Shown here: piece after piece, positions 614 to 20,000 of the stretch
Layout of the letters: every line of letters begins with the position of its first letter
Position numbering within the stretch: position 1 is the stretch's first letter
Virus record (IMG/VR): IMGVR_UViG_3300028048_003121
DNA length: 20,000 nt
Direction: 5' to 3' (one strand)
From: an uncultured virus (IMG/VR IMGVR_UViG_3300028048_003121)
Lineage: Duplodnaviria; Heunggongvirae; Uroviricota; Caudoviricetes
Notes under the pieces: generated by a model
What the model saw: the letters and a program-made list of their open reading frames with translations, nothing else
Database searches by the model: none
What the model was told of the DNA's origin: nothing
Translations under genes and position numbers: made by a program

Positions 614-688
614 AGCCAGAGAAGAAAAAGGAAGTCTTTCCCTCAGTTCAATCCGATATATCACATATACGCAACAACAAATAACCCC

Positions 689-1160: not shown

Positions 1161-1172
1161 TATAATATAGGT

Positions 1173-1995: not shown

Positions 1996-1996
1996 T

Positions 1997-2323: not shown

Positions 2324-2371
2324 CGTAAAACAGCCTATTTTGAAATTATTTTTGAAATAAATATTAAAATA

Positions 2372-2403
2372 TTTGCGTATTTCAAGAAATATTTATAACT
2401 TTG
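2372..2403 (+). promoter_or_regulatory. Bacteroidetes primary-sigma promoter for the 2437-12038 gene run
   Basis: TTTG (2372-2375) + 20 nt + TAACTTTG (2396-2403), consensus -33/-7. Confidence 0.85.
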
Positions 2404-2436
2404 CATACGAAAATACTAAAATAAGATATTTTACAC

Positions 2437-3758: not shown

Positions 3759-3794
3759 TATATAATAAGGTACAAACATATAAAGTCACTGATT

Positions 3795-4535
3795 ATGAAT
3801 AATAAGGTTGTCAAAACCAAGGCACAATGCCCAAAGACCTTTAATCGGGCTTTTGGTGTTCGCGAAATAGCACAGAAGATATGGGGTGAACTGAAAGTGT
3901 CAGACTCCTTTTCGTATCTCTATCGACGCTTTGGTGTTCCCTGTCTCGATACCAATAGCGAATACAAAATATCATATGAATACACTTTCTGGTATAAAGG
4001 GCTTTATTTCATCCTCTGCGGTACAACTCCAGATTTTGTATATCTGGACTGCTATTATCCGAAAAAATACTTCTGTCTACAACGTAACAGATACCGTAAG
4101 GATGTGCGAAACGTCTTTGAAAAGTCTTTGAAAGAGAATGTTCTGTGTTGGCCTTGGGCTTGTGGATTCTCACAGATATCTGATTCTTTGACGAAGAAAC
4201 AGTTAAAATCCTATAACACTAAGTTTGATGAAGAGGCACGGGTATTCTTTAGTAAAGAAGATTATAACTGGCTCGATTCCAGACAACATGTTAAACTCGA
4301 AGGAGCAGAAGCTGAAAAGTGTATGAATCTGATGGACGGTTTTTATAAATACTTACAGAATAAATTCAAGAAATGGGCTGGAAGCGATAAGGTCATCAAA
4401 ACTTTGTTCTGGTCTGATTACAATTTGAGATACCTTCCGGAAGTGGAGAAAATCGTTAAGGCTTTCTGTAAGGAAATGCTTAAAACGGAAAATATTCGGG
4501 ATTGTTCTATTAATATTCAGGGATGGCAGGAATGA
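3795..4535 (+). CDS. Hypothetical protein
   Basis: 246-aa ORF within the operon. Confidence 0.85.
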   Translation: MNNKVVKTKAQCPKTFNRAFGVREIAQKIWGELKVSDSFSYLYRRFGVPCLDTNSEYKISYEYTFWYKGLYFILCGTTPDFVYLDCYYPKKYFCLQRNRYRKDVRNVFEKSLKENVLCWPWACGFSQISDSLTKKQLKSYNTKFDEEARVFFSKEDYNWLDSRQHVKLEGAEAEKCMNLMDGFYKYLQNKFKKWAGSDKVIKTLFWSDYNLRYLPEVEKIVKAFCKEMLKTENIRDCSINIQGWQE

Positions 4536-4587
4536 ATTTCTACACATCCGTGGGGAAAATTATAGTGATAACCAAAATATAAAAATT

Positions 4588-6267: not shown

Positions 6268-6827
6268 TAACTATACCGAAACATACTATTCCGACGTATA
6301 ACCCAAGTTCGACTGCTATCAATGAGCAGTCGGACTTCACGCGTCGTATTCCGTCATACCCTCCGAAGGTAAGGGTAAGGGTGGAAAAAGTTATTAAGCA
6401 GCTTATCCAGGCATACGACGTAGAGGAAAACCCAGAGAAAATGAAGGATATCTTTTTCAAAAAGGCAAGTCTCCTTCCTAATCCTACCTATTGGGAACTG
6501 CTACGCTCAGTATGGGTAGCTGCTGGTAGAGTTGATAATGTTCATGAGTTTATGCCGTTCTTTAAATCCAATAGACCCAGTAAGAATTGGTTTATGACTC
6601 CAGAGGACGCTACAGCATTTGATAAAATGGTTTTTCCATTGAAGGTATATCGGGCCTATAGCCAAGAACCGGATCCGGGAATATCATGGACTCTCGATGA
6701 ACAATGGTGCAAGGAATATGCTACTTTCAACGATAGACAAATTAAATCCCGCACCGTTATGCGTGAAGATGTTTTCGCCTATATCAGCAGACGAGGCGAA
6801 GAAGAGATAATCATTTTACCCAAATAA
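6264..6827 (+). CDS. Putative ADP-ribosyltransferase-fold protein (R-S-E class)
   Basis: ATGA coupling to the MTase; LKVYRA ... GISWTLD ... RGEEEIIIL. Confidence 0.6.
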   Translation: MITIPKHTIPTYNPSSTAINEQSDFTRRIPSYPPKVRVRVEKVIKQLIQAYDVEENPEKMKDIFFKKASLLPNPTYWELLRSVWVAAGRVDNVHEFMPFFKSNRPSKNWFMTPEDATAFDKMVFPLKVYRAYSQEPDPGISWTLDEQWCKEYATFNDRQIKSRTVMREDVFAYISRRGEEEIIILPK

Positions 6828-6828
6828 T

Positions 6829-7482
6829 ATGGCAGAGATAAAAATCACAAAGGATCTTCTGGTTCCTTTCGTTTCAAAAGATGAAACACGACCAGGACTG
6901 GCTGATGTTTTCCGTCAGCACGGATATGTTATAGCGTCAGACGGACACCTCTTGATAAGAGTGCCGGAGAATATGGTGGATGACCTGGAACAGATACCCG
7001 AACAAGGTCTTCCCAATACCGACAGTGTTATCCCAAAGGAATTGCCTTGGAATAAGCCAATAACCAAAGATTGCTTGATGAAAGCGCTGGCTAAAGCTCC
7101 CAAGGTGGAGGAAAAGGTAAGGTGTGAAGACTGTCACGGCTCTGGTAAGGTTGAATGGACTTACGAAGCCCAAAACGGCCATGAGTACACCGACACTTTT
7201 GAATGCCCTGTATGTCACGGCAAGGGTCATCATGGCGTGACGGGAAAACTGGTTCCAGATCCGCAACAACTCTATTCATTGGCTGGTGGAGCCATGAATC
7301 CGGAATGTCTGTATGATCTCATTCGTGTAATGGAAACATTTAAGGTAAAGAAGATGTCGCAACGCTCCTCTGATAACTTCAAGGCAATGTTTACTATCGG
7401 TGAAGTCCAAGTACTAAAGACATTTGTCATCATCGAAGGTGAAGACAAACCTCTACTGGATGAAATGATTAACATCAGATAA
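6829..7482 (+). CDS. Beta-clamp-like protein fragment with DnaJ-type zinc finger
   Basis: FVSKDETRP.L..V...IASDGHLL, PNTDSVIP; CEDCHGSG...CPVCHGKG. Confidence 0.6.
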   Translation: MAEIKITKDLLVPFVSKDETRPGLADVFRQHGYVIASDGHLLIRVPENMVDDLEQIPEQGLPNTDSVIPKELPWNKPITKDCLMKALAKAPKVEEKVRCEDCHGSGKVEWTYEAQNGHEYTDTFECPVCHGKGHHGVTGKLVPDPQQLYSLAGGAMNPECLYDLIRVMETFKVKKMSQRSSDNFKAMFTIGEVQVLKTFVIIEGEDKPLLDEMINIR

Positions 7483-7491
7483 ACTATCATA

Positions 7492-7806
7492 ATGGGCCAA
7501 CGCTATAGATATGAAGGTACTCCGGGCTGTTGCAGACCAACTCGTACATGGCGCAAATGGCTGATAGCCTATGAGGATGGCGAAGAGATATATGCCAAGA
7601 AAGGCTATATCCTCGACTTGGGTAAGCTAAGCATCCGGAGAGGACAGAATATCCATGTCTATGAAGAGACTATTACCCACATCATCAATCACAGAACACG
7701 CGAGATAGAGGTGAATAAGTTCAGAATAGAGATAACGGAACGCCTGAAGATGGAAATCAAAATTGAAAATTTAGATCGAAAACTTTTAAAAGAAAAAAGA
7801 ATATGA
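7492..7806 (+). CDS. Hypothetical protein
   Basis: 104-aa ORF tightly packed in the operon. Confidence 0.7.
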   Translation: MGQRYRYEGTPGCCRPTRTWRKWLIAYEDGEEIYAKKGYILDLGKLSIRRGQNIHVYEETITHIINHRTREIEVNKFRIEITERLKMEIKIENLDRKLLKEKRI

Positions 7807-7919
7807 ATATACTATCACTAATTATTGGTTGCACTCTTGGAAGCATTATAGGATATATTATAGCATATATCCAAGTCAGGTACGAGAATAAATCTAAACG
7901 GCAGAAAAGAAATGGATAA
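7803..7919 (+). CDS. Small single-TM peptide (38 aa)
   Basis: MNILSLIIGCTLGSIIGYIIAYIQVRYENKSKRQKRNG; ATGA overlap upstream and overlap with the next start; below the ORF-track cutoff. Confidence 0.6.
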   Translation: MNILSLIIGCTLGSIIGYIIAYIQVRYENKSKRQKRNG

Positions 7920-8265
7920 GATAATAACAAACATTACTATCGGAAACTGGTATCTGGTTAGAGAAAAACCTACCAGAATATCTCCGGCAAATGTTGTGTG
8001 GGCATTTCGGGATGGATGTTTTCCTATACCGCTGACAAGTGAAATACTGGAGAATAGCGGTATTCATAGAGAGGGAGGTGCCAGTTTCTGGCACGATGAA
8101 CATTATAGTATTGTATTTTTCTTCTGGAATGAGGAAAGAATAGAACTGATTATCAGTAAGAGAGGTGATGATCGTCCGTATATTGCAAAACTTGATGTAA
8201 AATACGTCGATCAACTACAAGATTTATTGAGAGTGTATAATATAAACTTAATGATTGAGTTATGA
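7912..8265 (+). CDS. Hypothetical phage-type protein (paralog of 9578-10030)
   Basis: PIPLTSEILE.SG ... VKYVDQLQ motif. Confidence 0.8.
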   Translation: MDKIITNITIGNWYLVREKPTRISPANVVWAFRDGCFPIPLTSEILENSGIHREGGASFWHDEHYSIVFFFWNEERIELIISKRGDDRPYIAKLDVKYVDQLQDLLRVYNINLMIEL

Positions 8266-9383
8266 AACTAAAGAAAATAGAAATAGATTCATGGTATATC
8301 TGTATTAAAGACATATATAACTCGGAGGGAAAAATAGAGTTCCAAAGTGGAAAAGTCTATCATGCACCTAAAGACAACTATCTGATCCGGGATGACAACG
8401 GTCAACCTGAGATAATCGGTGCATTTCTGATAGAACATTTCAAACTATGGTCAGTGAAAGATGCCAAGCCAGGAGATTTCCTGACATACAGCAGTGATGA
8501 ACATAAGGACTGGTATTTCATCTATCATAGCGAATACAAACCCTATGACAGTCATCATCATTACTTTGCCGGTTATTCAGACAAATTTCTTCCAGGAGGA
8601 ACGGCGTGTATCGATGAAGATGGCCTTCGTCCATCCACACATGAAGAATGTGACTTGCTCCTCCATAAAATAGAAGAGGCAGGATATCATTGGGATGCTG
8701 AAAACCACAAGCTGATAAAAAATAAAGAAGAGAATGAGGTGAAACAGAAAATGACGGATGAAGAGTCCATCATCCAATGCTTCGGCGAGTGGCAGCACGA
8801 GATGGTTCGAAAAACCGGCTTTGTTTATGGCTATATACGTCAGGTAGTCAGGAACTTCCTGAATGGCTTTGAAGAACCAGGTAATAACTACTTTAAGTGG
8901 GAAGTGACACACCTCATCGAAAAAGCTCTGCAGCATAAGGATGAGGGTGTAAAAGCCTACGCCCGTATGTTGGCCAAAAAATATAGTAAAGACGGACAAG
9001 ATAAATATGCAGACTGCATCTTGTCTGCCATCGGAGAAAAAGAAATACCAATGGCGACCATGGATGAGAGCACAGAGAGAATGACTGTCATCACTCTCTG
9101 TGGCAGTACTCGCTTCAAGGAGCAGTTCTTGGAACAGCAGAAACGATTGACCCTTGAAGGAAACGTCGTCATCAGCGTAGGCCTGTTCGGTCACTCCGGC
9201 GACGAAGAGGTTTGGAAACCAGGCATGAAAGAAATGCTGGATAAGATGCACTTCCAGAAGATCGACATGGCCGACGAGATATTTGTTATCAATGTCGGCG
9301 GTTATATTGGCGAGAGTACCAGGCGTGAGATTGCTCATGCAGAACAGACGGGTAAACCTGTACGATATTTGGAAAGTATATAA
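8262..9383 (+). CDS. Multidomain protein with C-terminal nucleoside 2-deoxyribosyltransferase-like domain
   Basis: C-terminal VITLCGSTRF...KIDMADEIFVIN.GGYIGEST.REI..A...GKPV; ATGA overlap start. Confidence 0.75.
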   Translation: MKLKKIEIDSWYICIKDIYNSEGKIEFQSGKVYHAPKDNYLIRDDNGQPEIIGAFLIEHFKLWSVKDAKPGDFLTYSSDEHKDWYFIYHSEYKPYDSHHHYFAGYSDKFLPGGTACIDEDGLRPSTHEECDLLLHKIEEAGYHWDAENHKLIKNKEENEVKQKMTDEESIIQCFGEWQHEMVRKTGFVYGYIRQVVRNFLNGFEEPGNNYFKWEVTHLIEKALQHKDEGVKAYARMLAKKYSKDGQDKYADCILSAIGEKEIPMATMDESTERMTVITLCGSTRFKEQFLEQQKRLTLEGNVVISVGLFGHSGDEEVWKPGMKEMLDKMHFQKIDMADEIFVINVGGYIGESTRREIAHAEQTGKPVRYLESI

Positions 9384-9413
9384 GGATTATATAACCATTA
9401 AATTATAGAAGAT

Positions 9414-9581
9414 ATGAGACTCTACGGAAGTATATGCCCCATCTATAATCGCGAGGTCAATGATGACTGCCGTCGATGCGGTCGCTTCTATTCCGGCAAC
9501 GCCACAGGAATAGAATGTGACAGTTCCCCAATGGATATTCCGAACATCCTTAAAGAGATTGGAAAGGAGGCTGGAGTATGA
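9414..9581 (+). CDS. Small Cys-rich protein (55 aa), possibly Zn-binding
   Basis: MRLYGSICPIYNREVNDDCRRCGRFYSGNATGIECDSSPMDIPNILKEIGKEAGV; ATGA overlap with 9578. Confidence 0.6.
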   Translation: MRLYGSICPIYNREVNDDCRRCGRFYSGNATGIECDSSPMDIPNILKEIGKEAGV

Positions 9582-10030
9582 CAATACAAGAACTGAAAAA
9601 GCTGATGATTGATGACTTCGTATATTCAAAGAAGCACAATCAGATAGTTCGGGTCTGGGCGGTACATCCCGGCTATATTCAGTGTTATGTCAACGGCATC
9701 CTGACAGAAGTCGGTAACGACGATGTAGAACCCATCAGGCTTACAGACGAGTTTCTGAAGAAACTTGGATTCAAGCCTCGCAGGGATATTGGCTGGGAGG
9801 ATAGAGACTTGTTCTACTGGGAAGGTGATAGGGTTTATGCCAGACTTATTCCTACCAGTTATAAGATCAGCAGTTGGTATGACTTGAAAATCGAGTCGAT
9901 AGACTCTGACGATCTGCGTCGGGGTGACTTGCGCCGTACAATGGTGAAGTATGTGCATGAAATGCAGCAGGCCTTTCGGTTTAACTATATCGATAAGGAA
10001 TTTAACTTAACGACGAAAAATAGCATATGA
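9578..10030 (+). CDS. Hypothetical phage-type protein (paralog of 7912-8265)
   Basis: PIRLTDEFLKKLGF ... VKYVHEMQ motif. Confidence 0.85.
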   Translation: MTIQELKKLMIDDFVYSKKHNQIVRVWAVHPGYIQCYVNGILTEVGNDDVEPIRLTDEFLKKLGFKPRRDIGWEDRDLFYWEGDRVYARLIPTSYKISSWYDLKIESIDSDDLRRGDLRRTMVKYVHEMQQAFRFNYIDKEFNLTTKNSI

Positions 10031-10251
10031 CTAACAAAAAAAAGTATATCAAAAATGAAAAATGTAATCCAACAAAGACGGATTGGGTGGTATTTGTTTT
10101 GTCGGTGTTGTTCACTATTCTTACTTGTGACCATATAACAAAATGTATTGGAGAATGGTTCAAAATCATTTCTTGCATTATTGTTCTTCTCGGTGCCTTT
10201 TATTTTGTCACCAGATTATTTTGCTTTTGGGTAAAGGAAATGACATCGTAA
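10027..10251 (+). CDS. Small two-TM membrane protein
   Basis: Two hydrophobic stretches; ATGA overlap. Confidence 0.65.
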   Translation: MTNKKKYIKNEKCNPTKTDWVVFVLSVLFTILTCDHITKCIGEWFKIISCIIVLLGAFYFVTRLFCFWVKEMTS

Positions 10252-10309
10252 CGTATGACTGACGAGGGCTTTGAAAGAGAAATAAAGGAAAATAAACTGG
10301 TCTGACAAT

Positions 10310-10633
10310 ATGGTAAAGAAAAATATATACTTGAAAAACGGAACGCTGTTCGCCACAGGCTACAACCGTATCGTCCATGGTGGACGGGGCGACTATGTAG
10401 AGTTTGAGCGCGACCAGATTGTACCAAAGCTAAGATCTAAATTCGGGAACAAACCGACGGACGATTTGGATATATACTACTGGTGGCTCGTACCTGAGAC
10501 TGACCCTGAAACAAAAGTATATTTTCAGAAGAAAACGGTCAAATACGCCGACTATAAAATCGGGAAATACTACGTTGATCCGTATCTCCTGAAGGATTTC
10601 AAAGACCCGGAACAACTGTTTAACTACGAATAA
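10310..10633 (+). CDS. Conserved hypothetical protein
   Basis: 107-aa ORF, GYNRIVHGGRGDYVEF...VKYADYK.G.YY. Confidence 0.85.
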   Translation: MVKKNIYLKNGTLFATGYNRIVHGGRGDYVEFERDQIVPKLRSKFGNKPTDDLDIYYWWLVPETDPETKVYFQKKTVKYADYKIGKYYVDPYLLKDFKDPEQLFNYE

Positions 10634-10647
10634 ATTTGTTATCTGTC

Positions 10648-11535
10648 ATGGGCGTATTGAGAAAACAAACAACAGTAAAGAGTGAACCGCTGACTGAACA
10701 GTCAATACAGCGGCGGTTGAATCATGTCTTCGCTTCCTGGAAATACAATATTGACGGGCTGTTTGTCTTCGAGTGGGAGTCAGACAAACTCATTTGGACG
10801 AAGACAGGCTACATATATGAGTTTGAAATCAAAATCAGCCGTGCTGACTTCAAAAACGACTTCAAAAATAAAAAAGAGAAGCATATCATCCTGAAAGGCC
10901 CGACGGAGGAGGAGCGTTTCATGCCGTCGTTCTATCAGAGCTACGAATGGAACAAACACCTGTATAATTCCATTGATGACTGTAAGGCAAGAATAAAGCC
11001 TGGTGACAGTCATCTGATAGAAAGCCACAAGAAACCAAACTACTTCTATTACGCTGTTCCAGAAGGGCTGATACAGCCGGAAGATGTTCCTGAGTATGCA
11101 GGTCTGATATACATCCTGAAGGAATATCACTATGAACGTCAAAGTTACGTCATAGTGAAAAAGGCACCTTGCCTGCATAAGCAGAAATACAAGGATGGTG
11201 AGCTTAACCTCGCTGAGAAATTCTGGTGGAACTGGCAGAGTGACCGCCGCTTGCGGCAAGAGGCCCAACGGGAACGTGACGATGCACGTAAGGCCTTACA
11301 AGAGGAACTTGCTGAGCATCAGCAAGAAGAAACCTACCAGTCCCTTAAATGGAAATACAAGGTGGCCAGCTCAGAGAGGGACGAATATCAGTCACTTTAT
11401 TCTGCCAAATGCCGTGACCAGAATATCGACAGGATGATCATCCGCAAGCTACGCCATGAGCTGCTACAACTTAAACCAGACTTCGACTACAAAGTAATCG
11501 AAGCGGAATGTGAGAAAATCTATGGTATCAAGTGA
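10648..11535 (+). CDS. MmcB-like PD-(D/E)XK nuclease-fold protein with C-terminal coiled coil
   Basis: WESD...YEFEIKISRADF..DF, PNYFYYAVP..LI...VP.YAGL; ATG at 10648. Confidence 0.75.
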   Translation: MGVLRKQTTVKSEPLTEQSIQRRLNHVFASWKYNIDGLFVFEWESDKLIWTKTGYIYEFEIKISRADFKNDFKNKKEKHIILKGPTEEERFMPSFYQSYEWNKHLYNSIDDCKARIKPGDSHLIESHKKPNYFYYAVPEGLIQPEDVPEYAGLIYILKEYHYERQSYVIVKKAPCLHKQKYKDGELNLAEKFWWNWQSDRRLRQEAQRERDDARKALQEELAEHQQEETYQSLKWKYKVASSERDEYQSLYSAKCRDQNIDRMIIRKLRHELLQLKPDFDYKVIEAECEKIYGIK

Positions 11536-11561
11536 CACCAAATCCCTTTTTTGTTGGTTTA

Positions 11562-12038
11562 ATGGAAAAAATGACCTATGACAAGCTCAAAAAGCTGGAA
11601 GCTGAACACCAGCGTCACCGTCAGGCGAAAAAACGCCTGAAGGTATACTATGGGTGGAGCAAAATTAACAAGATACAGAAACGCGAGGCTATTGCCGTCG
11701 CCTTTGAAAATGAAGAGGGTGCTGGATGGAAAAACAGCAGGTCTGGCAAGTCACTCAGAAAGACGATGACTGTCTGCTATGAACGATACCAGACGGAAAA
11801 GGAAATGTCGGATGCTGCCGCTTATAACAGGGTATTCACCGTCTATTACGTCTTTCTGGATGACAAGGCTGTAAAAGGCAGCCTAAACCGTGCCTTACAG
11901 ATCAACTCAGAGAGTGATAAGAACCATGTCACAAGTTCTGAACGGAAGCTTATATCTGAGGCCCTGGAAAGATCTTTCATGGCCTCACACATCGGCTACA
12001 AAGAGCCGACGCGACAACTGGAGCTGCAGTTTAAATAA
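11562..12038 (+). CDS. Hypothetical protein
   Basis: ATG 11562 (or GTG 11532); last gene of the + run. Confidence 0.8.
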   Translation: MEKMTYDKLKKLEAEHQRHRQAKKRLKVYYGWSKINKIQKREAIAVAFENEEGAGWKNSRSGKSLRKTMTVCYERYQTEKEMSDAAAYNRVFTVYYVFLDDKAVKGSLNRALQINSESDKNHVTSSERKLISEALERSFMASHIGYKEPTRQLELQFK

Positions 12039-12041
12039 CCA

Positions 12042-12810
12042 TGGAAGGGGTGATGGCTCACCATCTGTAGCATACCAGGACGATGACCGCATCAGTCTGT
12101 CACAAGACCACAAGGAAGTCTGTCTTAACGTAACCAGCCTATGGACTATATCCTTATTCCGCTGCCTCACATTACACCGAGGAATGCCAGAAAACCTGCC
12201 ACCTCACGGTGTTTTTCATCGGCATACGTTGTGTGCTGATGAAAAAATTATGTGGTCAACAAAACAAGGATGTACCCCATGAACGGCGCTACTAACAGAT
12301 TTTTTCGATGGACTTGCACCAGGCTGACGCCTTATGGTCAACACACCTGAATATCCTACAGCATCGTCGTAAACGATGAACCTTCCACTTGACATTCTTT
12401 CATACGACATGGGAGCCTTGTTTCTCTCACAACACCAGCGTGACCTTATCGATGGCTGAAGAATATACAGCATGCGTATCTATTCTGAGGGTACTCGCTA
12501 CCTGTAGACAGAGAGTTATCATGTCATCCTGTTCTGAATGGCACTTGCCTATGGGAAACAAGTATTACATACACATTTCCCATTGAGGCAGACAAGGTCT
12601 GCTTCACCGGCAAGAAAGCTATTCAGGGATGAAATAACAACACTCCTTACTTTGGATAGGGAGCACTCTCTTCTTTAAAGCGGTAGATGCTGTATGTTCA
12701 TCAGCACATCCGGCCACTTTTAGACTCTATTGTTCAGAAAAAGGCCTCCAGAACTATCGCCCACACCGAAGCACACGGACAGTACTCAATGAGCAACTAT
12801 CCGAGGCTTC
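12042..12810. ncRNA. Large multi-hairpin non-coding element (putative large ncRNA or structured ssDNA site); strand unresolved
   Basis: No credible ORF; more than 12 helices seen by eye, including 12042-48/12381-87, 12092-99/12320-27, 12213-27/12231-45, 12534-42/12618-26, 12551-58/12576-83, 12585-93/12597-605. Confidence 0.55.
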
Positions 12811-12818
12811 ACCCAGCC

Positions 12819-12862
12819 CTTTCTTACCCACACATTTAAGCTTTCTTCCCTACAGATTTAAA
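12819..12862 (+). repeat. Tandem 2 x 22-bp imperfect repeat
   Basis: CTTTCTTACCCACACATTTAAG / CTTTCTTCCCTACAGATTTAAA, 18/22 identical. Confidence 0.7.
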
Positions 12863-12868
12863 CCGTTC

Positions 12869-13087
12869 TCATCGGAGAAGATGAGAACGGATAATGAGAA
12901 CCTTATCGTTCAGGTACTTGCTACCGTCGATAGAAAGACTTGCACGAAGATGACCTTCGCAGCAACCTATATCATCAATACTGAACTTCTTGAAGACGGC
13001 ATGTACGCTGCCGAAATAATAGTTGGCATGACCGTGGATGAAATGGACATGCACAACCTTTGGGAGTTGTTTTCCGTCGATAACCAT
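12869..13087 (-). CDS. Small conserved hypothetical protein of Bacteroidales mobile elements
   Basis: KVVHVH....NYYFGSV.A.F...I.SHLLR; own -7 box 24 nt upstream. Confidence 0.8.
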   Translation of the reverse strand: MVIDGKQLPKVVHVHFIHGHANYYFGSVHAVFKKFSIDDIGCCEGHLRASLSIDGSKYLNDKVLIIRSHLLR

Positions 13088-13110
13088 AAGCTTGATCTCC
13101 TATTTTTCTG

Positions 13111-13118
13111 CAAAGATA
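13111..13118 (-). promoter_or_regulatory. Bacteroidetes -7 box for the 72-aa gene
   Basis: TATCTTTG(CA) on the - strand; part of inverted repeat AAAGATAGC/GCTATCTTT. Confidence 0.7.
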
Positions 13119-13237
13119 GCAAATAAATACTATAAAGCTATCTTTTAGTGCAGAATTTTAGGATAAAATAACCATTCTATATAACATATAGTACCTATAT
13201 GTAAGGATATTGCTTTTACAAAAGCATTTTCCCTTGC

Positions 13238-13546
13238 GGATTTCCATCGTGCCACCTGCCCTACAGAATACCCATCGACGTTGACTGTTTTTTCACGCCG
13301 TTTTCCCTTGCAAAGGTATGGAGAGGCAGGCTATCGCCAATGAACAGGCTAAAGTATCGGCATAAAAAGCTCAGGCAGCCTTCCGCAGATTACTGCATAA
13401 TCTGGGTATTCCTGATTTTTTACTTGATATTCCTTGGCTTATAGCCTTTAGAACCTCTCCCTGATATACCGGCAAGAAAAAAGGCTAAAACAGTGAAACG
13501 ATGTACCGATGAGTTCTTTGAAAGGGTGGTGACAGATGAAAAATTC
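13238..13546. promoter_or_regulatory. Long imperfect hairpin, putative ssDNA (Frpo-like) promoter, copy 2
   Basis: Pairs: CAGATTA/TAATCTG 13386-13404, TCAGG 13371-75/CCTGA 13411-15, AGGCTAT 13328-34/ATAGCCT 13441-47, GGAGAGG 13320-26/CCTCTCC 13454-60, CTTGC 13307-11/GCAAG 13472-76, ACTGTTT 13284-90/AAACAGT 13488-94; - strand TACCTTTG at 13318-13311. Confidence 0.7.
13377..13412 (+). repeat. 36-bp direct repeat (hairpin apex), copy 2
   Basis: Identical to 458-493. Confidence 0.95.
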
Positions 13547-13631
13547 CAAAAAAAGAAAATAAGGACTTTCAGCTCTCGATACCCGATAAGTTCAATAACA
13601 ACAGCGCAACAAAAGAATAGGAGGATTGAAT

Positions 13632-13772
13632 ATGAAAAAGTCATTTAACCAGATAGCAGCTCAACTGGAGCGTATCTACAAGCTTTACTACAAGGGCTTC
13701 GGTACAAAGACATTACTGGAGAAGGCAGAAAAGTGCATGTACGGCATACAGAACGTAGGACTGTGCTTCTGA
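13632..13772 (+). CDS. Small basic protein (46 aa)
   Basis: MKKSFNQIAAQLERIYKLYYKGFGTKTLLEKAEKCMYGIQNVGLCF; GAATATG start context with GGAGG upstream. Confidence 0.65.
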   Translation: MKKSFNQIAAQLERIYKLYYKGFGTKTLLEKAEKCMYGIQNVGLCF

Positions 13773-13784
13773 CATCTAACAATA

Positions 13785-13830
13785 AACAAACAGCGGAGGC
13801 GGCGCGATATAAACAGCCACAAAGAATATG
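13785..13830 (+). repeat. Conserved pre-start leader motif, copy 2
   Basis: 37/46 identical to 689-734. Confidence 0.85.
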
Positions 13831-14403
13831 AAGAAATATAATATCTATCAGATCAAGAACGACTCACAGGTTGCTCGTGGCATCAAATTTTCCGGACTGG
13901 AAGAGCTGGAGAAATACAACCTACGTAGCCAACTGACCCTCGACATCTATCAAAAGGTCTATACCGGCGAGATAGAGGATGGCGACATATTGGTAATGCT
14001 GGATCGTATCTTCTCGAAGTTCCAGGGGAAAAAGCCTGCTGACTTTACAGGTCATAGCGTCAGCGTATCAGATATGGTGGAAATGGACGGTAAGTACTAT
14101 TATTGCGACCATTACACATGGAAGAAAATCACTTTCACTGAGACTAAGACAACAGAAACTCCAGAAAAGGATCTCTACAGTGAGGTGGCAGATATCCTAA
14201 AGGAAGGTAACCTCTATGGTGACATCAATACCTACGATAACCAGGTGGAGGTCAGTATCGAATGGGGTGACTGGAAACACGAACATGGCTATCTTCGCTA
14301 TCTCATGGAACAGAAAGGCTTCGTTGAGACCAACGAGGAAATCACTGAAGAGGATGGTAGCGACTGCTACTCAGCAGTACACACCTTCAAAAAGGCAGCA
14401 TAA
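13828..14403 (+). CDS. YodL-domain protein fused to an acidic C-terminal domain
   Basis: YNIYQIK...Y.KVY.G...L..IF..F....P.DF.GHS.SVSD.V...YYCD. Confidence 0.8.
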   Translation: MKKYNIYQIKNDSQVARGIKFSGLEELEKYNLRSQLTLDIYQKVYTGEIEDGDILVMLDRIFSKFQGKKPADFTGHSVSVSDMVEMDGKYYYCDHYTWKKITFTETKTTETPEKDLYSEVADILKEGNLYGDINTYDNQVEVSIEWGDWKHEHGYLRYLMEQKGFVETNEEITEEDGSDCYSAVHTFKKAA

Positions 14404-14408
14404 CATAT

Positions 14409-14440
14409 AAAGGTAACGGGAGCCTAACCAACTCCCACTA
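14409..14440 (+). repeat. Post-gene GGGAG-CTAACCA-CTCCC hairpin motif, copy 2
   Basis: AAAGGTAACGGGAGCCTAACCAACTCCCACTA, similar to 1127-1160. Confidence 0.85.
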
Positions 14441-14454
14441 AAAACTTACGTCAT

Positions 14455-14613
14455 ATGAATAACAACAATGCAATCTACAGGGAACTATGGTTCGTGGCAC
14501 CAGTTTTCAAGTGGCTGGACAAACATCCGCTCATCTCAGACATCATCCTGGTTCTGGAAGGCTTGGCAACAGCCTGGGCAGTGTTTAACTATAACTTTAC
14601 AACCAATTTCTGA
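14455..14613 (+). CDS. Small hydrophobic protein (52 aa)
   Basis: MNNNNAIYRELWFVAPVFKWLDKHPLISDIILVLEGLATAWAVFNYNFTTNF; follows the post-gene motif as ORF 1173 does. Confidence 0.65.
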   Translation: MNNNNAIYRELWFVAPVFKWLDKHPLISDIILVLEGLATAWAVFNYNFTTNF

Positions 14614-14721
14614 CGAAAACGGTCTTAAATGAGTTAAATCAAGACAAAGTTTTGAGAATATTCTGAAAGTCAGATAAATAGTGATAATTTCGCAGAGTAA
14701 TAACTTAAAAAAAACAAGAAT

Positions 14722-15168
14722 ATGTTTAGTGGAAGTTTTTTAGGCCGTTGTGGCAAGGACGCCGAGATCTTAACAGGCGCATCAGGTGAACAGTATGTGG
14801 CATTGAATGTCGCAGAGTCTTATTATTCCAAGGGAGAAACCCTGACACGATGGTACAAAGTCTATGCCAGCTTCCCAAGAGCACTGAAACTGGCTCAGTA
14901 CTGGAAGAAAGGCAGACTCCTGGAAGTTGTTGGCGAACTGGTAAAGCATAACATCTATGAGGACAAGGATGGCAAGCCACAGCTTCAATTGGTGGTGAAC
15001 GCCTTCCGTGTGGAATTTCCACCAGTCGGCAAGAAAAGAGATGAACAGACCGGTGAACAGAAGAGCAGTACACCGCCTCCTGTCTCTGAGGAGGATGTTA
15101 ACAATACACCTCAGATGCCTTTCGAGGCTCCTGCAGGTGGCGAGGGTAACGATGATCTTCCCTTCTAA
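14722..15168 (+). CDS. ssb: Single-stranded DNA-binding protein
   Basis: OB-fold LGR.G.DAE...T.W.....KKG..V.V.G.L; acidic tail DDLPF. Confidence 0.92.
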   Translation: MFSGSFLGRCGKDAEILTGASGEQYVALNVAESYYSKGETLTRWYKVYASFPRALKLAQYWKKGRLLEVVGELVKHNIYEDKDGKPQLQLVVNAFRVEFPPVGKKRDEQTGEQKSSTPPPVSEEDVNNTPQMPFEAPAGGEGNDDLPF

Positions 15169-15205
15169 GAACACCTACTTACAGTAGAATGTCTATCGAG
15201 GCCTC

Positions 15206-15240
15206 GGACGCTGAGCCAGTGGAATCAGCGTCCACTTTCT
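15206..15240 (+). terminator. GC-rich hairpin after ssb (weak terminator or processing site)
   Basis: GGACGCTGA 15206-14/TCAGCGTCC 15225-33 followed by ACTTTCT. Confidence 0.45.
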
Positions 15241-15254
15241 AAAAACAATCAGAT

Positions 15255-15572
15255 ATGAATAAGGAAGAATTTAATCAGAAACTCGGACGGCTACAGGAAA
15301 TCATTGCTGAAGCCAGGGAAATTATCAGCTCTTTGGAAGAGTTCTGCAAAGAGAATAATGAGCTGGCATATACACCTGTAGCATCTCTTGCTATAGCCCA
15401 AGGTGGGCTACAAACAAAATATTTGAACGTCTGCAGCAATGCTGGCATCAAAAATATCCAGCAGCTTATGGACGTTGGCTACAACAACTTTAAGAAATAC
15501 CGGAATAGCGGCAAGATGACGGCTGACCTGGTCAGGAAAGCCTTATGGGAACAATATCATATAGAATGGTAA
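15255..15572 (+). CDS. RNA polymerase alpha-CTD-like (HhH) domain protein
   Basis: L.TK.LNVCSNAGIKNI.QL......FKKYRNSGK.T...V..AL. Confidence 0.7.
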   Translation: MNKEEFNQKLGRLQEIIAEAREIISSLEEFCKENNELAYTPVASLAIAQGGLQTKYLNVCSNAGIKNIQQLMDVGYNNFKKYRNSGKMTADLVRKALWEQYHIEW

Positions 15573-15955
15573 AGAAATCTGGTATGGAATATTTCCGCGT
15601 CATCATAGCCGGTGGTCGTGACTTTAACGACTATCCACTGCTGAAAGCCAAATGTGACAACATCCTGGCAGATAAAACCGCTACACACCGTATCATAGTC
15701 GTGTCTGGAGCGGCCAAGGGAGCTGACAGCCTGGGCGAGCAGTATGCCCGTGAGAAGGGCTATACTGTAGAACAATATCCGGCTGACTGGAATACACACG
15801 GCAGGGCGGCTGGTCCCATCCGTAATGCTCAGATGGCGAACAGCGCCGATGCCCTGATAGCCTTCTGGGATGGCCAGAGCAAAGGCACGAAGAGTATGAT
15901 AAACATAGCCAAGACAAAAGGATTGGGCGTAAGAGTAATAAGCTACACTATATAA
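15566..15955 (+). CDS. SLOG-family (DUF2493/YspA-like) protein
   Basis: IIAGGRDF.DY, VSGAAKGAD, ADW..HG.AAGPIRN.QM, AFWDG.SKGT; start 15566 or 15584. Confidence 0.88.
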   Translation: MVKKSGMEYFRVIIAGGRDFNDYPLLKAKCDNILADKTATHRIIVVSGAAKGADSLGEQYAREKGYTVEQYPADWNTHGRAAGPIRNAQMANSADALIAFWDGQSKGTKSMINIAKTKGLGVRVISYTI

Positions 15956-16014
15956 TTTTCTCGAAATATTGTATTTTTCAGCATATAATTTTCATCAAAA
16001 ATTGTATTTTTACT

Positions 16015-16476
16015 ATGAATAGAATCACAGAGAGATACTGGTTCCGGGCAAAGGTGCTACACCATGACCCAAAAACAAATCCTGAAAACGGATGGGTACA
16101 GGGCTTCTACTATCAAGACCTGTGCGGTGGAGAGATCAAACATTTCATCCGTTCAGGGGAAATGGTATGGGAAATCGATCCGAAGACATTAGGAATGTTT
16201 ACCGGCTTCTATGACAATAGCACAGAGCCACAGCCTATCTTTGAAGGCGACATCCTTCATACGCTCTTCAAGGATAACGGCAGCAGCTATGACCTGGTAG
16301 GCTGGAACCCGAAAAATGGTTGCTTCGGCATCATGGATGATATAGACTATAACGCCAGAATGGAGGGTGAGGAGGATTACTACTCCTATGAAGCCTTTGC
16401 TTGGATGCACCAGAAAAAAGTTCAGTCGGTAGTAGCTGGAAACGTCCACGAGAATGCAGACCTGATGACACAATAA
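16015..16476 (+). CDS. YopX-family protein
   Basis: FRAK...WV.G...IDP.TLG.FTG..D....IFEGDI...V.GNVHEN.DL. Confidence 0.85.
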   Translation: MNRITERYWFRAKVLHHDPKTNPENGWVQGFYYQDLCGGEIKHFIRSGEMVWEIDPKTLGMFTGFYDNSTEPQPIFEGDILHTLFKDNGSSYDLVGWNPKNGCFGIMDDIDYNARMEGEEDYYSYEAFAWMHQKKVQSVVAGNVHENADLMTQ

Positions 16477-16495
16477 TAATTAAATCCAATATAAC

Positions 16496-16915
16496 ATGAA
16501 GATCCTGATTATTGAAGACAGTGAACTGAAACGCAAAGATATCGAGCGTTTCATGAAAGAGAACTTCCCCGATGCGGATGTCACGACGGCGGCATCTTAC
16601 AGCTCCGGACTGCGTAAGGCCTACAAAGGGGAATTTGACGTTGTCATCCTCGACAACAGCCTTCCTTACTATGAGGACAGACCGTATGACATCCAGCCGG
16701 ACATGGCACGCAATATCCTGGAAGAAATAGAAGAGATACCGCCACAGAAGAGACCTCGGTGTATCATCTGCTCACAGTACGACGGAAACACCAAGGAAGA
16801 CTACTTCCGTCATATTACAGAACAATATGACTACTGCATCGGATATATACAGTATGACAACTGCTCGTCAGAATGGGAAGAGAAGCTGAAGACAATGATA
16901 AAAGGTAACGGCTAA
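16496..16915 (+). CDS. Stand-alone response regulator receiver domain
   Basis: KILIIED, FDVVILDNSLP (phospho-Asp), IICS. Confidence 0.85.
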   Translation: MKILIIEDSELKRKDIERFMKENFPDADVTTAASYSSGLRKAYKGEFDVVILDNSLPYYEDRPYDIQPDMARNILEEIEEIPPQKRPRCIICSQYDGNTKEDYFRHITEQYDYCIGYIQYDNCSSEWEEKLKTMIKGNG

Positions 16916-16921
16916 GAGACT

Positions 16922-17176
16922 ATGGATGAGAAGAAGATATACTTACCGGATGCTGAGACGGCTGGTAAACTGATAGAAAACGCCTGGCAGGAGTTCTGCG
17001 ACCAGATGAAGGAAAACGACATGGACTTCACAGGAACAAAGGTCGAAGAGCTGCTGCATGACGTGTTTGTCGCCGGTTATGCCTTCGGACATAACGACTG
17101 TCTGGCCATTATCCGCGACCAACTCTCCATCGACAACTGGATGAAATACACCAGTACGATGAACAAGAGTTCGTAA
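16922..17176 (+). CDS. Hypothetical protein
   Basis: 84-aa ORF ending the + run. Confidence 0.75.
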   Translation: MDEKKIYLPDAETAGKLIENAWQEFCDQMKENDMDFTGTKVEELLHDVFVAGYAFGHNDCLAIIRDQLSIDNWMKYTSTMNKSS

Positions 17177-17191
17177 AGACCATACACAGCA

Positions 17192-17231
17192 AATAATAAA
17201 CCCCTGTCAAGACTGGCAGGGGCTTGTTATT
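17192..17231. terminator. Probable bidirectional intrinsic terminator at the convergence point
   Basis: AATAATAAA-CCCCTGTCA AGAC TGGCAGGGG-CTTGTTATT. Confidence 0.7.
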
Positions 17232-17443
17232 ATATTAAGCGGGACATCAGGGATAACCAGAGCATCAAGAACCTTTCTTTCTAATTTCTCATTGATCCTG
17301 GTCAGCTCGTCAGAAGAGTGCGGTTTTAAATAACCTACATCATCTGAAGTGTGGGCCACACATCCCCGTAACTCACAAGGAGTACCAGGCAGGCCTTTCA
17401 GGCAATAACCATTATGATGATAGCCACAGTGCTCGTCAATCAT
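17207..17443 (-). CDS. Small Cys/His-rich hypothetical protein
   Basis: 78 aa, C..HH..C.....C...C; starts 5 nt after the upstream stop. Confidence 0.65.
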   Translation of the reverse strand: MIDEHCGYHHNGYCLKGLPGTPCELRGCVAHTSDDVGYLKPHSSDELTRINEKLERKVLDALVIPDVPLNIITSPCQS

Positions 17444-17448
17444 ACACT

Positions 17449-17793
17449 TTAGTCAAAGATCTCGTTGATGTCGCCTGGCTTGCGGCTACGCTTGACCTTG
17501 ATAGGGCCATGCTTATCTTCGTAGGCAGCTACAACAAGTTCCAACGCCTTATTGATAACATCCTTGATGGGAATGTTCTCGATATTGGCAATAGCCTTAC
17601 ACTTGTTATAAAGCTCACACTTGACGATGGAAGAAATACGCTCTTCCTCGGCTCCCATCGGCTTACGACCACGACGGGAAGTTCCTCTTGCCGGTGAAGC
17701 TGCCGGGGAAACATTTTCCTCTGCGACGGGAGCCTGTGTACCTCCAGTGAGACCTTCCAGCAAGTCGCTGGTATCGAAATTCTTTTTTGCCAT
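17449..17793 (-). CDS. Probable ParA partner, ribbon-helix-helix DNA-binding protein
   Basis: Disordered N-terminus, RGRKP, then ISSIV..ELY.K.K.IA......IKDVIN.AL; downstream of parA. Confidence 0.7.
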   Translation of the reverse strand: MAKKNFDTSDLLEGLTGGTQAPVAEENVSPAASPARGTSRRGRKPMGAEEERISSIVKCELYNKCKAIANIENIPIKDVINKALELVVAAYEDKHGPIKVKRSRKPGDINEIFD

Positions 17794-17816
17794 AAATGAT
17801 CATATTTAAATTTGAC

Positions 17817-17855
17817 TGCAAAGATATCAATATTTTCTGAAATACGGAAATATTT
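17817..17855 (-). promoter_or_regulatory. Promoter/operator of the RHH gene, near copy of 2367-2405
   Basis: - strand AAATATTTCCGTATTTCAGAAAATATTGATATCTTTGCA containing -7 TATCTTTG; 34/39 identical to 2367-2405. Confidence 0.8.
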
Positions 17856-17864
17856 ATTGAAAAA

Positions 17865-18182
17865 TTACTCCTTTTGCTGTTGAATGTAGGGGGAAATGGT
17901 TCCAAAGCGCCCCTTTAAATACGGGGAACCTTCAATTTCTATCACTTCATAACGCTGACCGTTGTTGTCCGTGACATAGGTTCTGTCAACGTCCGCTTCA
18001 CGTGTGAAATAATCAACGGAAAGAATAAACAAACCGATAACACAGACAAATATCACTGCTGAAGCAAAGGTGGAATAGTTGTCTGATGAAAACCATTCAG
18101 ACCGGATAATCCAGACACAAACAGCAATAATCGCGATAAGAATGATAACGACGTAAATAAACAAGTCCATAGCTCTATCCAT
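17865..18182 (-). CDS. Two-TM membrane protein
   Basis: Two hydrophobic helices; overlaps the parA stop. Confidence 0.75.
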   Translation of the reverse strand: MDRAMDLFIYVVIILIAIIAVCVWIIRSEWFSSDNYSTFASAVIFVCVIGLFILSVDYFTREADVDRTYVTDNNGQRYEVIEIEGSPYLKGRFGTISPYIQQQKE

Positions 18183-18936
18183 TATAACCTAACTTCTGTA
18201 ACAGCTCTTCCGTAAAGGCGCGATAATCGGCAGCACCATTACTCTTAGGCGCATACTCGACAATGTTCCTGTGCTCCAGAGGTGCCTCGGCGACGCTGAC
18301 GTTCTTACGGATCTTAGTCGCAAAAACCAGATTTCCGACAGTCTTACGTAAATCGGATTCGATAGTCTTACTGAGGTTGGTACTCTCCCAACGGGTAATG
18401 AGAATACCACTGATATGTGCGGCATTATTGAGCCGGTTATGGATGAGCTTAACGAAGTTGTTAATCATCTTCAGACCGTTGAACGGCAGCACCTCGGCTA
18501 TTAACGGCACAATGACATCAGTACAGGCAGTGATGGCATTCAGGGTAATAAGACCCAGGGAAGGGGGACAGTCAAGCAGGATGAAATCATAGTTATACTT
18601 GATCGGTTTAAGAAGACCGTCCAGAATCTTCTCTCTACTGATGGCACCAGCCAGCTCAATATCAACCATGGCCAGCATCTCAGAGGCAGGAATAAGTGAC
18701 AGGTTTTCCGTGATGGAAATAATAGGCAGCTCACCTTTACCGGTAAGAGCGTCGTAGATGGTCTCATCTGTAGGATGTTTCAAGAGACTCAGAGTGAGAT
18801 TGGCCTGGGCATCCAGGTCAGCAAGTAATACATGATAGCCCTTCTGAGCTAAGTAACTGCCAACACTGGCGGTCGTCGTGGTTTTACCAACACCGCCCTT
18901 GTGATTGACAAATGAGATAATCTTCGTCTGTTTCAT
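18175..18936 (-). CDS. parA: ParA/Soj family partition ATPase
   Basis: NHKGGVGKTTT deviant Walker A, DLDAQANLT, ILLDCPPSLG, I...VAEAP. Confidence 0.95.
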   Translation of the reverse strand: MKQTKIISFVNHKGGVGKTTTTASVGSYLAQKGYHVLLADLDAQANLTLSLLKHPTDETIYDALTGKGELPIISITENLSLIPASEMLAMVDIELAGAISREKILDGLLKPIKYNYDFILLDCPPSLGLITLNAITACTDVIVPLIAEVLPFNGLKMINNFVKLIHNRLNNAAHISGILITRWESTNLSKTIESDLRKTVGNLVFATKIRKNVSVAEAPLEHRNIVEYAPKSNGAADYRAFTEELLQKLGYNG

Positions 18937-19074
18937 AAAACTTACTATTTAAAACGTTAATAATTTATTTCTGGTGAGAAATCCTGAAAAGGAAGTCACT
19001 CTGCTCTTCCTCGGTCATCTGACCCCAGTTGAGCCATTTCTTTCTCTTCTTTTGTCTCTTTACAATACATTCTT

Positions 19075-19416
19075 TCATTGTTCTTTCTTGAAGGTTTTTG
19101 TCTGAAGATGTATATTATCCATTGCCAGTGACCTTGCCACCTGACTCCACATGTCCGGGTCATTAATACGGTCACAGCAATATCCTGGACCACGATGAAC
19201 GTTCATTCCATCATAAGATAGATATTCAAGGAAGGCAACCTTCGCACCATTGTCGTCCGTCCAATAGTAGGACATCAGCACGAAGTCCTTATACTTCCGC
19301 TTTAACATACGTGTCACCTCATTAGGTAATGGCACGTATTCATATCGAGGATGGTTAGGAAACCCTGCCATCTCCCACATTTCCTTATCAGAACTTGCCG
19401 GTGCTACCATAGTCAT
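19075..19416 (-). CDS. Hypothetical protein
   Basis: 113 aa, ATGA overlap with the upstream gene. Confidence 0.75.
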   Translation of the reverse strand: MTMVAPASSDKEMWEMAGFPNHPRYEYVPLPNEVTRMLKRKYKDFVLMSYYWTDDNGAKVAFLEYLSYDGMNVHRGPGYCCDRINDPDMWSQVARSLAMDNIHLQTKTFKKEQ

Positions 19417-20000
19417 TCTTCCTTTATTCCTAACAAATCATTAAAATAACCTTCTTTGAATACATCGAGGATATCTGAGTCCTCACAACAGGAAGGACAC
19501 GATAAACAATAACCGCTGTCAGAAAGCTGCATACCTTCCTCTATCTTTATCTTTTTCTCCTTATAGCAGATGTAGACATCGTAGCAGGCGATTTCCTTCA
19601 GGTAGAATGTCATCAGCGCAAGCTGGGATGTAACAATCGGCGTTATTCCTATACTTATAGCGTGACTGGCTTGTATATAATCATAATAGCCGACCGCTCC
19701 ACGATTATCCAGCATCTGCTTTGTGTATGACTCAATATCGACACAGAAATAGATCTCTTTCTGTTTTGGAGTTTCTTCGATAAGAATCCAAAGGGAATCG
19801 GCCCCATTGAGACTGACGCCGTCATCCTTATAAAAACAACAGTCATCAGTGTCACCGTCATCAATGACGGCAAGAATTGAACAACGTCCACGACAGTTCC
19901 ATTTAACTATCTCGACGGGTTCTCCCATATCAGTGACAACCCTGTACTCCCCAGACTCTATCTGAGGACGATACTGTAAATCAAAGGGTATTCTTTTCAT
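19413..20000 (-). CDS. Hypothetical protein (phage-type N-terminal domain)
   Basis: 195 aa, ATG at the window edge; IPFD....I.SG...VVT..G.PV.I..W. Confidence 0.8.
   Translation of the reverse strand: MKRIPFDLQYRPQIESGEYRVVTDMGEPVEIVKWNCRGRCSILAVIDDGDTDDCCFYKDDGVSLNGADSLWILIEETPKQKEIYFCVDIESYTKQMLDNRGAVGYYDYIQASHAISIGITPIVTSQLALMTFYLKEIACYDVYICYKEKKIKIEEGMQLSDSGYCLSCPSCCEDSDILDVFKEGYFNDLLGIKEE

Follow-up and report, generated by a model that had tools for sequence, protein, structure and literature searches.

A 20,000-nucleotide stretch of DNA (the window), whose source is a Prevotella-type mobile element of the cattle gut, contains two long hairpins with promoter-like boxes in their stems. 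The boxes face the genes to their right only in the folded single strand; in duplex DNA they point leftward. What a promoter arranged in this way would be for is the question that the locus raises. We conclude that the two units, at 13225-13613 and about 320-620, are probably single-strand (fold-back) promoters of a conjugative element, a Bacteroidota counterpart of Frpo. The initial annotation of the second copy had proposed a hairpin promoter. That proposal is supported by what was observed here, namely the structure with its covariation and strand bias, the conserved boxes, the behaviour as a cassette and the orientation of the genes; activity on single-stranded DNA is predicted.

Two hairpins in the window share one apex

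320-620, minus strand: hairpin copy 1, of arm type A; it heads the gene array of 732-12038 and has its apex at 458-493
13238-13546, minus strand: hairpin copy 2 (arm type B), long and imperfect; the minus strand is the best folder
13377-13412, unstranded: apex of copy 2, identical to 458-493, with a 7-bp stem (CAGATTA/TAATCTG), a 5-nucleotide loop and conserved unequal flanks

The window has two occurrences of the 36-nucleotide apex and no more, one at 458-493 and the other at 13377-13412. As had been claimed, there is no mismatch between them; none of 200 shuffles gave a match. Folding energies were calculated for both strands of each copy and compared with those of shuffled sequences. Copy 2 gave -58.4 kcal/mol on the minus strand (z -6.5) and -48.8 kcal/mol on the plus strand (z -4.4), and the corresponding values for copy 1 were -41.0 kcal/mol (z -3.1) and -37.8 kcal/mol (z -2.7). 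On re-reading of the sequence, TCGCCAA was located at 13334-13340 in copy 2 and 418-424 in copy 1, and TTGCAAAGnTA at 13308-13318 and 393-403, respectively; these coordinates and the spacers of 19 nucleotides in copy 2 and 18 in copy 1 all agreed with the initial annotation.

The arms of the two copies differ in sequence and keep their pairing. GGAGAGG/CCTCTCC and AGGCTAT/ATAGCCT of copy 2 were found paired in its minimum-energy fold, as were AGGCAG/CTGCCT and GGATG../..CATCC in that of copy 1. The proposal that the apex lies upstream of the -33 box in the folded form holds for the folded minus strand. A third candidate hairpin at about 14422-14745, built on a 21-nucleotide inverted repeat, was rejected: it folded no better than shuffles (z -0.7) and carried no promoter boxes. 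A search of the window with Rfam 15 covariance models gave no match at the gathering score, and chance-level matches at E values of up to 1-5. Joints that would mark deletions between the two 36-nucleotide repeats were looked for in four RNA-library runs and none was found; the sole long joint in those runs, from 723 to 14411 (X17), is a mosaic of cassettes.

A family of hairpins with rewritten arms and preserved pairing

Related hairpins were recovered from one Prevotella genome, a second genus and metagenomes, and fall into six arm types:

Type A: copy 1, L004 and L026
Type B: copy 2 and eight others
Type C: five loci
Type D: L008
Type E: L027
Type F: L006, from the second genus

An exact scan of metagenome contigs for a 20-nucleotide apex core returned 25 loci, 13 of them true family members; the other 12 had the core without flanks or arms and were dropped as chance matches. 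Among 401 genomes sampled from the same family, two (G001 and G050) matched the hairpin DNA, and the apex pattern matched one of 401 genomes sampled across the order, figures that describe these samples and do not imply absence elsewhere. There was no match to 13238-13546 among 72,556 PLSDB plasmids (blastn, word size 11), and none to the apex pattern among viral contigs. At least half of the sampled words of 13100-14500 were present in 15 of the 24 sequencing runs listed (11 studies), and most were labelled bovine gut metagenome. The closest genome compared, G001, had 24% of the window's sampled words in common with it and includes a contig labelled uncultured Prevotella; most of the window can be aligned collinearly with it, at about 96% identity, and four of its hairpins have this apex. 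Two long metagenome contigs, those bearing L022 and L016, have two hairpins each. Several copies are present per element, each heading a gene array.

For analysis of covariation, 16 of 17 distinct 311-nucleotide minus-strand sequences were aligned with MAFFT without structural guidance, the incomplete L013 and type F being absent from the alignment. RNAalifold predicted 49 pairs on these 16 sequences, with compensatory change at 20 of them. Pairing was possible in 95.4% of pairing cells, compared with 44-54% when the 3' partners were slid by 1-3 columns, and the covariation score of 0.364 (0.058-0.085 when slid) was reached by none of 500 shuffles. When one sequence per arm type was used (n=6, type F included), compensatory change was seen at 21 of 53 pairs. 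Covariation had been claimed inside one genome; it holds there and reaches well beyond that genome, and the family alignment thereby confirms and generalises the description of arms rewritten with pairing preserved.

The minus strand is the strand that folds

Calculated single-stranded DNA energies were lower for the minus strand in all five types compared over 361 nucleotides, and in 6/6 types over 301 nucleotides by 2.5 to 11 kcal/mol, a count that overstates independence, the six types being related and having the apex in common. With RNA parameters the minus strand was favoured in five of the six. Many of the pairs are G-T on the minus strand, which become A-C mismatches on the plus strand. 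The minus strand is also the template of the plus-strand genes to the right.

It is possible that the structure acts in RNA, as a hairpin in the 5' leader of a plus transcript started upstream, where it would serve as an insulator, terminator or processing site. Covariation alone does not separate DNA from RNA, and a similar role, the prevention of read-through from upstream promoters, is proposed for EGeRS1 of pLS20 (PMC8708921). RNA-library contigs (X10 and X16) also cover the entire type B hairpin with both flanks, in another context, so that either the region can be transcribed through or the libraries contained DNA; unless the latter is so, these contigs count against a strictly silent hairpin region. 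However, the plus-sense strand, of which such a leader would consist, is the poorer folder in every type with DNA parameters and in 5/6 with RNA parameters, and it has A-C mismatches where the minus strand has wobble pairs. A leader would give no role to invariant, correctly spaced boxes on the opposite strand, and no Rfam family was matched. We consider a function in RNA very improbable.

Promoter boxes in the stem

13338-13340, minus strand: -33 element TTG of copy 2, in a fully paired part of the stem; kept in five of six arm types
13311-13318, minus strand: -7 element TACCTTTG of copy 2, consensus TAnnTTTG, 19 nucleotides after TTG, partly unpaired in the fold
424-422 and 403-396, minus strand: -33 element TTG and -7 element TAACTTTG of copy 1, with an 18-nucleotide spacer
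13474-13480 (about 13477), plus strand: predicted start of the plus-sense transcript of copy 2, opposite the 4-6 nucleotides past the -7 box, as placed by fold geometry

The consensus for the Bacteroidota primary sigma factor is given as TAnnTTTG at -7 and TTTG near -33 (PMC7366714). In the hairpins, TAnnTTTG is present in every type, including F, always on the 3' arm of the minus-strand hairpin, and the columns TA.CTTTGCAA of the extended -7 box were unchanged in all 16 aligned sequences. The -33 position has TTG, not the consensus TTTG, in five of the six types, separated from the -7 box by 18 nucleotides in type A and by 19 in the other four (B, C, D, F). At this position type E reads TTTT, which counts against the promoter reading. 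The -33 motif is reported not to occur across all Bacteroidota (PMC7366714). In the minimum-energy folds, unpaired extra bases between the boxes are always on the template arm and never on the box arm; canonical spacing is therefore kept on the arm that bears the boxes. The pattern TTG-N17-21-TAnnTTTG occurs six times in the window on both strands, where 1.7 are expected, and two of the six are the hairpins. A scan of 12000-20000 for sigma-70-type sites listed none within the hairpin. By the same fold geometry, the transcript of copy 1 is predicted to start near 557. No canonical plus-strand -7 box was found between the hairpin and the first downstream gene in any of the seven contexts examined.

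The same boxes could form an ordinary duplex promoter that fires to the left, into a divergent gene or an antisense RNA, with the hairpin serving for regulator binding or as a cruciform. The minus-strand TTG-N18/19-TAnnTTTG is near consensus and does face left in the duplex. Divergent genes lie upstream in five of eight contexts (types A, B in the window, C/D, E and F); in types A, C and F there is no other canonical minus-strand box before them, and the divergent gene of C and D is the first of the transfer operon. These divergent genes, however, come from unrelated families. In three type B contexts the upstream gene, a peptidase gene ending 177 nucleotides before the apex, is co-oriented, so that a leftward start there could only be antisense. 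The divergent gene of the window itself, a 72-aa minus-strand gene (phrog_10608, E 5e-12), has its own -7 box at 13118-13111, and contigs over this gene, from three RNA-library runs of two studies, stop at 13090-13094 and not at the hairpin, a weak hint in the same direction. Nor does a plain promoter need 140 bp of covarying pairing or a bias towards one strand, and the cassette described below carries the right-hand leader, not the left-hand genes. A promoter acting only leftward in the duplex is, in our view, highly unlikely.

The apex as a recognition element

Conservation of the apex extends beyond its pairs. All ten apex pairs were unchanged in the 16 sequences; types A, B and C are alike at all 36 nucleotides, and a few flank positions are different in types D and E. 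The base at the centre of the loop is free, since G, A, C and T all occur there among near-identical copies. Type F has G-C in place of A-T as its top pair and a loop of 3 instead of 5 nucleotides, whereas its lower stem is kept and so are its unequal flanks, CCTTCCG and GGGTATTCC. A 2-nucleotide change in half-site spacing would disturb the operator of a dimer and would be harmless in a hairpin; recognition of an extruded or single-stranded form is for this reason the better reading, and the apex looks like a hairpin recognition element rather than a duplex operator. Unpaired flank bases are strictly conserved as well, which points to a sequence-specific partner and not a mere folding nucleus. 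The apex, situated about 60-95 nucleotides upstream of the predicted start, most likely serves the folded strand as an element for sequence-specific recognition or for nucleation. In the initial annotation it was suggested to bind an activator or repressor, or to have a second role such as priming; its variation would suit the binding of a hairpin better than that of a duplex.

On the minus strand the apex loop reads GNA, a type of DNA loop that can be very stable (PMC3201870, PMC13037366). This reading as a GNA triloop was given little weight: the closing pair is T-G (G-C in type F), not the favourable C-G.

A further arrangement would give the boxes a use in both states of the DNA. The direction of the promoter would be set by strandedness, leftward in the duplex (for types C and D, towards the first gene of the transfer operon) and rightward when folded, and the apex would dock a factor specific to the folded state that couples early transcription to priming. 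Candidates for this factor would be a primase, a host protein that binds single-strand structures, or the 105-aa protein encoded at 15255-15572. We hold this arrangement to be doubtful.

The hairpin moves as a cassette with its leader

13225-13613, unstranded: portable module of copy 2 (type B), consisting of the hairpin and a leader of about 65 nucleotides; it ends just 5' of a ribosome-site-like AGGAGG, with ATG at 13632

In three other contexts of type B (L002/L034, L016 and L021), the sequence resembles the window only over 13225/13232-13603/13613 (93-96% identity) and is flanked on either side by different DNA. The cassette moves with its right-hand leader and not with the left-hand genes. 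Type B precedes three different first genes, namely the 46-aa open reading frame (ORF) with the yodL-like gene, a gene for a 179-aa RnlB-antitoxin-like protein and a gene for a 135-aa protein. Type C leads into a sliding-clamp gene, type E into a SLOG/YAcAr-like gene, and types A and D into small proteins of no family. A conserved leader peptide starting from CCGATG was considered and ruled out, the frame being broken in copy 2 and open in L012.

Genes downstream of copy 2 and the reach of the unit

13632-13772, plus strand: 46-aa ORF, the first gene past the module, with conservative changes in L001, L012, L013, L022 and L023
13828-14403, plus strand: gene for a YodL-like protein of 191 aa (Pfam YodL, E 1.5e-19)
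14455-14613, plus strand: 52-aa ORF without a family match
14661-14692, plus strand: near-consensus ordinary boxes TTCTG, 19 nucleotides, TAATTTCG, before ssb (14722-15168)
17201-17222, plus strand: terminator-like stem where the plus-strand array ends, with convergent gene blocks on its two sides; RNA-library contigs end at 17187/17191

According to the initial annotation, the unit would drive the 46-aa ORF, the yodL-like gene, the 52-aa ORF and possibly ssb. This reach is partly supported. The first three genes follow the hairpin, and terminator-like sites between the hairpin and ssb do not exceed shuffle expectation (7 found, 6.2 expected). The ssb gene, however, is preceded by the near-consensus boxes at 14661-14692, and RNA-library contigs from two studies begin just beyond them, at 14715 (X10) and 14708 (X17), and run to 17187/17191; ssb probably has its own start. 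The X10 contig start is preceded by 20 letters that we take to be adapter-like. Other RNA-library contigs begin at 2428/2441, just past the sole ordinary full plus-strand promoter of the first array (2373-2403). The RNA-library evidence comes from four runs and consists entirely of contigs, in which strands and true ends are invisible, so that these agreements between boxes and contig starts are weak hints. Contig depth cannot rank genes, and the higher figure over 14715-17187 was not interpreted.

Two further observations concern the same stretches. No contig from the four runs covered 1-667, which includes the type A hairpin, and among the 32 contig pieces listed none lay within 13095-13270 or 13614-13905; neither gap is evidence. 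The protein encoded at 15255-15572 has a faint likeness to the C-terminal domain of the RNA polymerase alpha subunit, and its single-sequence structure model was poor (mean pLDDT 56.9).

Element context and the transferred strand

The plus-strand arrays of the window encode PAPS-reductase-like, C5 DNA methylase, YodL-like, SSB, SLOG/YAcAr and YopX-like proteins, together with many of no family. Such a mix is that described for leading regions (PMC11541004), and the genes downstream of the hairpins (C5 methylase, PAPS-reductase-like, SSB, YodL and RnlB-antitoxin-like) are of this kind. Three observations count against the promoter reading: the window contains no oriT, relaxase or transfer genes; past the plus-strand array, 17207-20000 carries minus-strand genes, including a ParA-like one; and in G001 the end of the collinear element adjoins chromosomal gld genes.

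The G001 genome also provides information on strand polarity. A type B copy 98% identical to that of the window heads a 12-kb array there (RnlB-like, a PstI-type methylase and nuclease pair, SSB). The array reads in the direction of a Mob_Pre relaxase gene and, beyond it, a coupling-protein gene, both on the same strand as the array. By the geometry of conjugation, the relaxase gene usually enters the recipient last. If it does so here, the template strand of the G001 array would be the transferred strand, as a single-strand promoter needs. Next to type C, and back to back with it, is a transfer operon (DUF4134, TraG/VirB4-like).

We propose that the minus strand, the template of the plus-strand genes and presumably the transferred strand, enters the recipient alone and forms a hairpin some 140 bp long. 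TTG, 19 nucleotides and TACCTTTG on its 3' arm would then serve the primary sigma factor of the phylum as the non-template side of a promoter that resembles a duplex. The 5' arm would act as template and, no longer paired, would continue into the 46-aa ORF and on through the yodL-like gene and the 52-aa ORF. RNA polymerase that accepts this fold would start near 13477 and head to the base of the hairpin and on into the genes. Once the complementary strand was made, the boxes would be reversed and expression of the genes would end. By analogy with F, the transcript may also prime synthesis of the complementary strand.

This last step raises the possibility that priming is the whole function, and that the hairpins are only single-strand origins or replication-control sites that prime or stall complementary synthesis, any messenger being incidental. 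Single-strand origins that depend on RNA polymerase are described as orientation-specific folded promoters (PMC4595007), Frpo transcripts are reported to prime synthesis, and an ssp2 hairpin to stall it (10.64898/2026.01.09.698686). The conserved apex could be a primase or primosome signal, and some copies precede a sliding-clamp gene or ssb genes. On the other hand, each copy lies directly 5' of a gene, with a common leader and no other canonical promoter, and the presence of several copies per element, each at the head of an array, is the pattern of operon promoters. Promoter and priming roles are, moreover, not exclusive in F. Replication control as the sole function is quite unlikely.

Comparison with known systems

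Single-strand promoters let plasmids express anti-defence and establishment genes seconds after entry. To our knowledge, all those that have been tested are enterobacterial and have sigma-70 boxes. Bacteroidota dominate gut and rumen communities and are rich in conjugative elements. Should the proposed reading be correct, the single-strand promoter device would have arisen independently in this phylum, on its unusual -33/-7 promoter, and searches of Bacteroidota for early-entry regulons and new anti-defence genes could rely on its signature, a template-strand hairpin whose 3' arm bears TAnnTTTG. With their single apex, the six arm variants form a natural mutational series in which positions that have to pair can be told from positions whose sequence has to stay, and the function of the apex thereby becomes directly testable. 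No report of single-strand promoters in Bacteroidota was found in the literature searched, subscription journals being outside its scope, and the term Bacteroid* is not mentioned in PMC11541004 or PMC13478746.

The closest parallels are Frpo1 and Frpo2 of F, ssi1-3 of ColIb-P9 and the class 2/3 promoters of pESBL and F, described as long, imperfect hairpins of the template strand (PMC11541004, PMC12672017, 10.64898/2026.01.09.698686). The window hairpins have this form, with promoter boxes in the stem. In the Frpo/ssi systems a duplex promoter is described as being rebuilt before leading-region genes (ssb, methylase and anti-restriction genes), as we propose here. Several copies are present per element in both groups; those of Frpo/ssi are silent once double-stranded and may also provide primers, as the window hairpins would. 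There is, however, no sequence likeness between the two groups (blastn against 72,556 plasmid records). The host phylum is different, and the boxes are the Bacteroidota -33/-7 elements and not the sigma-70 -35 TTGACA and -10 TATAAT. The window hairpins also differ from Frpo in having an invariant apex on rewritten arms.

Among the ssoA types, a short conserved loop motif occurs amid otherwise diverged hairpins. The sso elements of rolling-circle plasmids and ICEBs1 are described as orientation-specific folds that exist only in the single strand, are read by host RNA polymerase and matter after conjugative entry (PMC4595007). By description, an sso makes a short primer and heads no operon, whereas the window promoter points from the apex into genes.

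In the pLS20 family of Bacillus, EGeRS1 units of several hundred bases are repeated and structured and stand directly before establishment operons; there are several per element, described as having no constitutive duplex promoter (PMC8708921). EGeRS1 is described as a branched multi-hairpin structure without recognisable sigma-A boxes, whereas the units of the window are single hairpins with clear boxes.

Apparent cassette structure of the early genes

Two 58-nucleotide leaders, 78% alike, were found at the following positions.

689-746: 58-nucleotide leader, directly upstream of the 131-aa gene
13785-13842: 58-nucleotide leader, directly upstream of the yodL-like gene

RNA-library contigs (assembled contigs aligned to the window, which show neither strand nor true ends and may derive from contaminating DNA) revealed the type B module, the second hairpin copy, followed by this same leader in another context, with 13600 joined to 696. 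The early genes seem to have been built up from hairpin, leader and gene cassettes. Within the hairpins, a short motif recurs about 30 nucleotides past the predicted start of the plus-sense transcript; it is invariant or near-invariant in arm types A to E, with a variable pairing partner.

585-590 and 13506-13511, plus strand: CCGATG, which is CATCGG on the 5' arm of the minus strand

The first array, headed by hairpin A, also contains an internal promoter, and RNA-library contigs start close to it, at 2428 and 2441.

2373-2403, plus strand: full canonical promoter, upstream of the gene at 2437

This is the sole full canonical plus-strand promoter within the array. The first four genes past hairpin A may therefore depend on the hairpin, and in duplex DNA the remaining genes may be served as well.

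The region left of the type B module

Directly left of the type B module, a palindromic region (13098-13163) precedes a minus-strand ORF, and carries a box on that strand together with the near-box TATCTTTT on the plus strand.

13118-13111, minus strand: -7 box, before the 72-aa gene
12869-13087, minus strand: 72-aa ORF (phrog_10608, E 5e-12)

Judged by its phrog match, the ORF is a real gene, and the palindromic region may be a small bidirectional promoter. Downstream of this gene lies a stretch of 830 nucleotides (12040-12870) with a single-stranded DNA fold of -133.9, compared with -96.1 +/- 5.0 for shuffled sequences (z -7.5); folding was of lower energy on the minus strand with DNA and RNA parameters alike. 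No convincing ORF was found in this stretch, Rfam returned no matches for it, and RNA-library contigs (12090-12998 and 12478-13094) cover nearly all of it. It may represent a large structured RNA; alternatively, it may be a single-strand DNA element.

Neighbouring genes and the related locus

A further gene encodes a protein faintly resembling the alpha-subunit C-terminal domain of RNA polymerase.

15255-15572, plus strand: 105-aa protein gene, between ssb and the SLOG/YAcAr gene

The Pfam score (E 2.1e-4, 21.4 bits) falls below that model's cut-off of 23.8 bits, and NCBIfam rpoA models gave E values of 6e-5 and 7e-4. A structure modelled from the single sequence (pLDDT 56.9) was too poor for judgement. 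Further along, 29-nucleotide AT-rich repeats form a tandem pair (15950-16011, 86% alike) in the gap preceding the YopX-like gene.

A second type B copy is present in the nearest of the genomes compared, labelled as an uncultured Prevotella (G001).

G001 contig C5, 107000-126999: locus L034, containing the second type B copy

Upstream of this copy are genes for a reverse transcriptase and a clostripain-family peptidase, and downstream are an RnlB-antitoxin-like gene, a PstI-type methylase/nuclease pair and SSB. The hairpin in this locus lies amid mixed defence-like and anti-defence-like genes.
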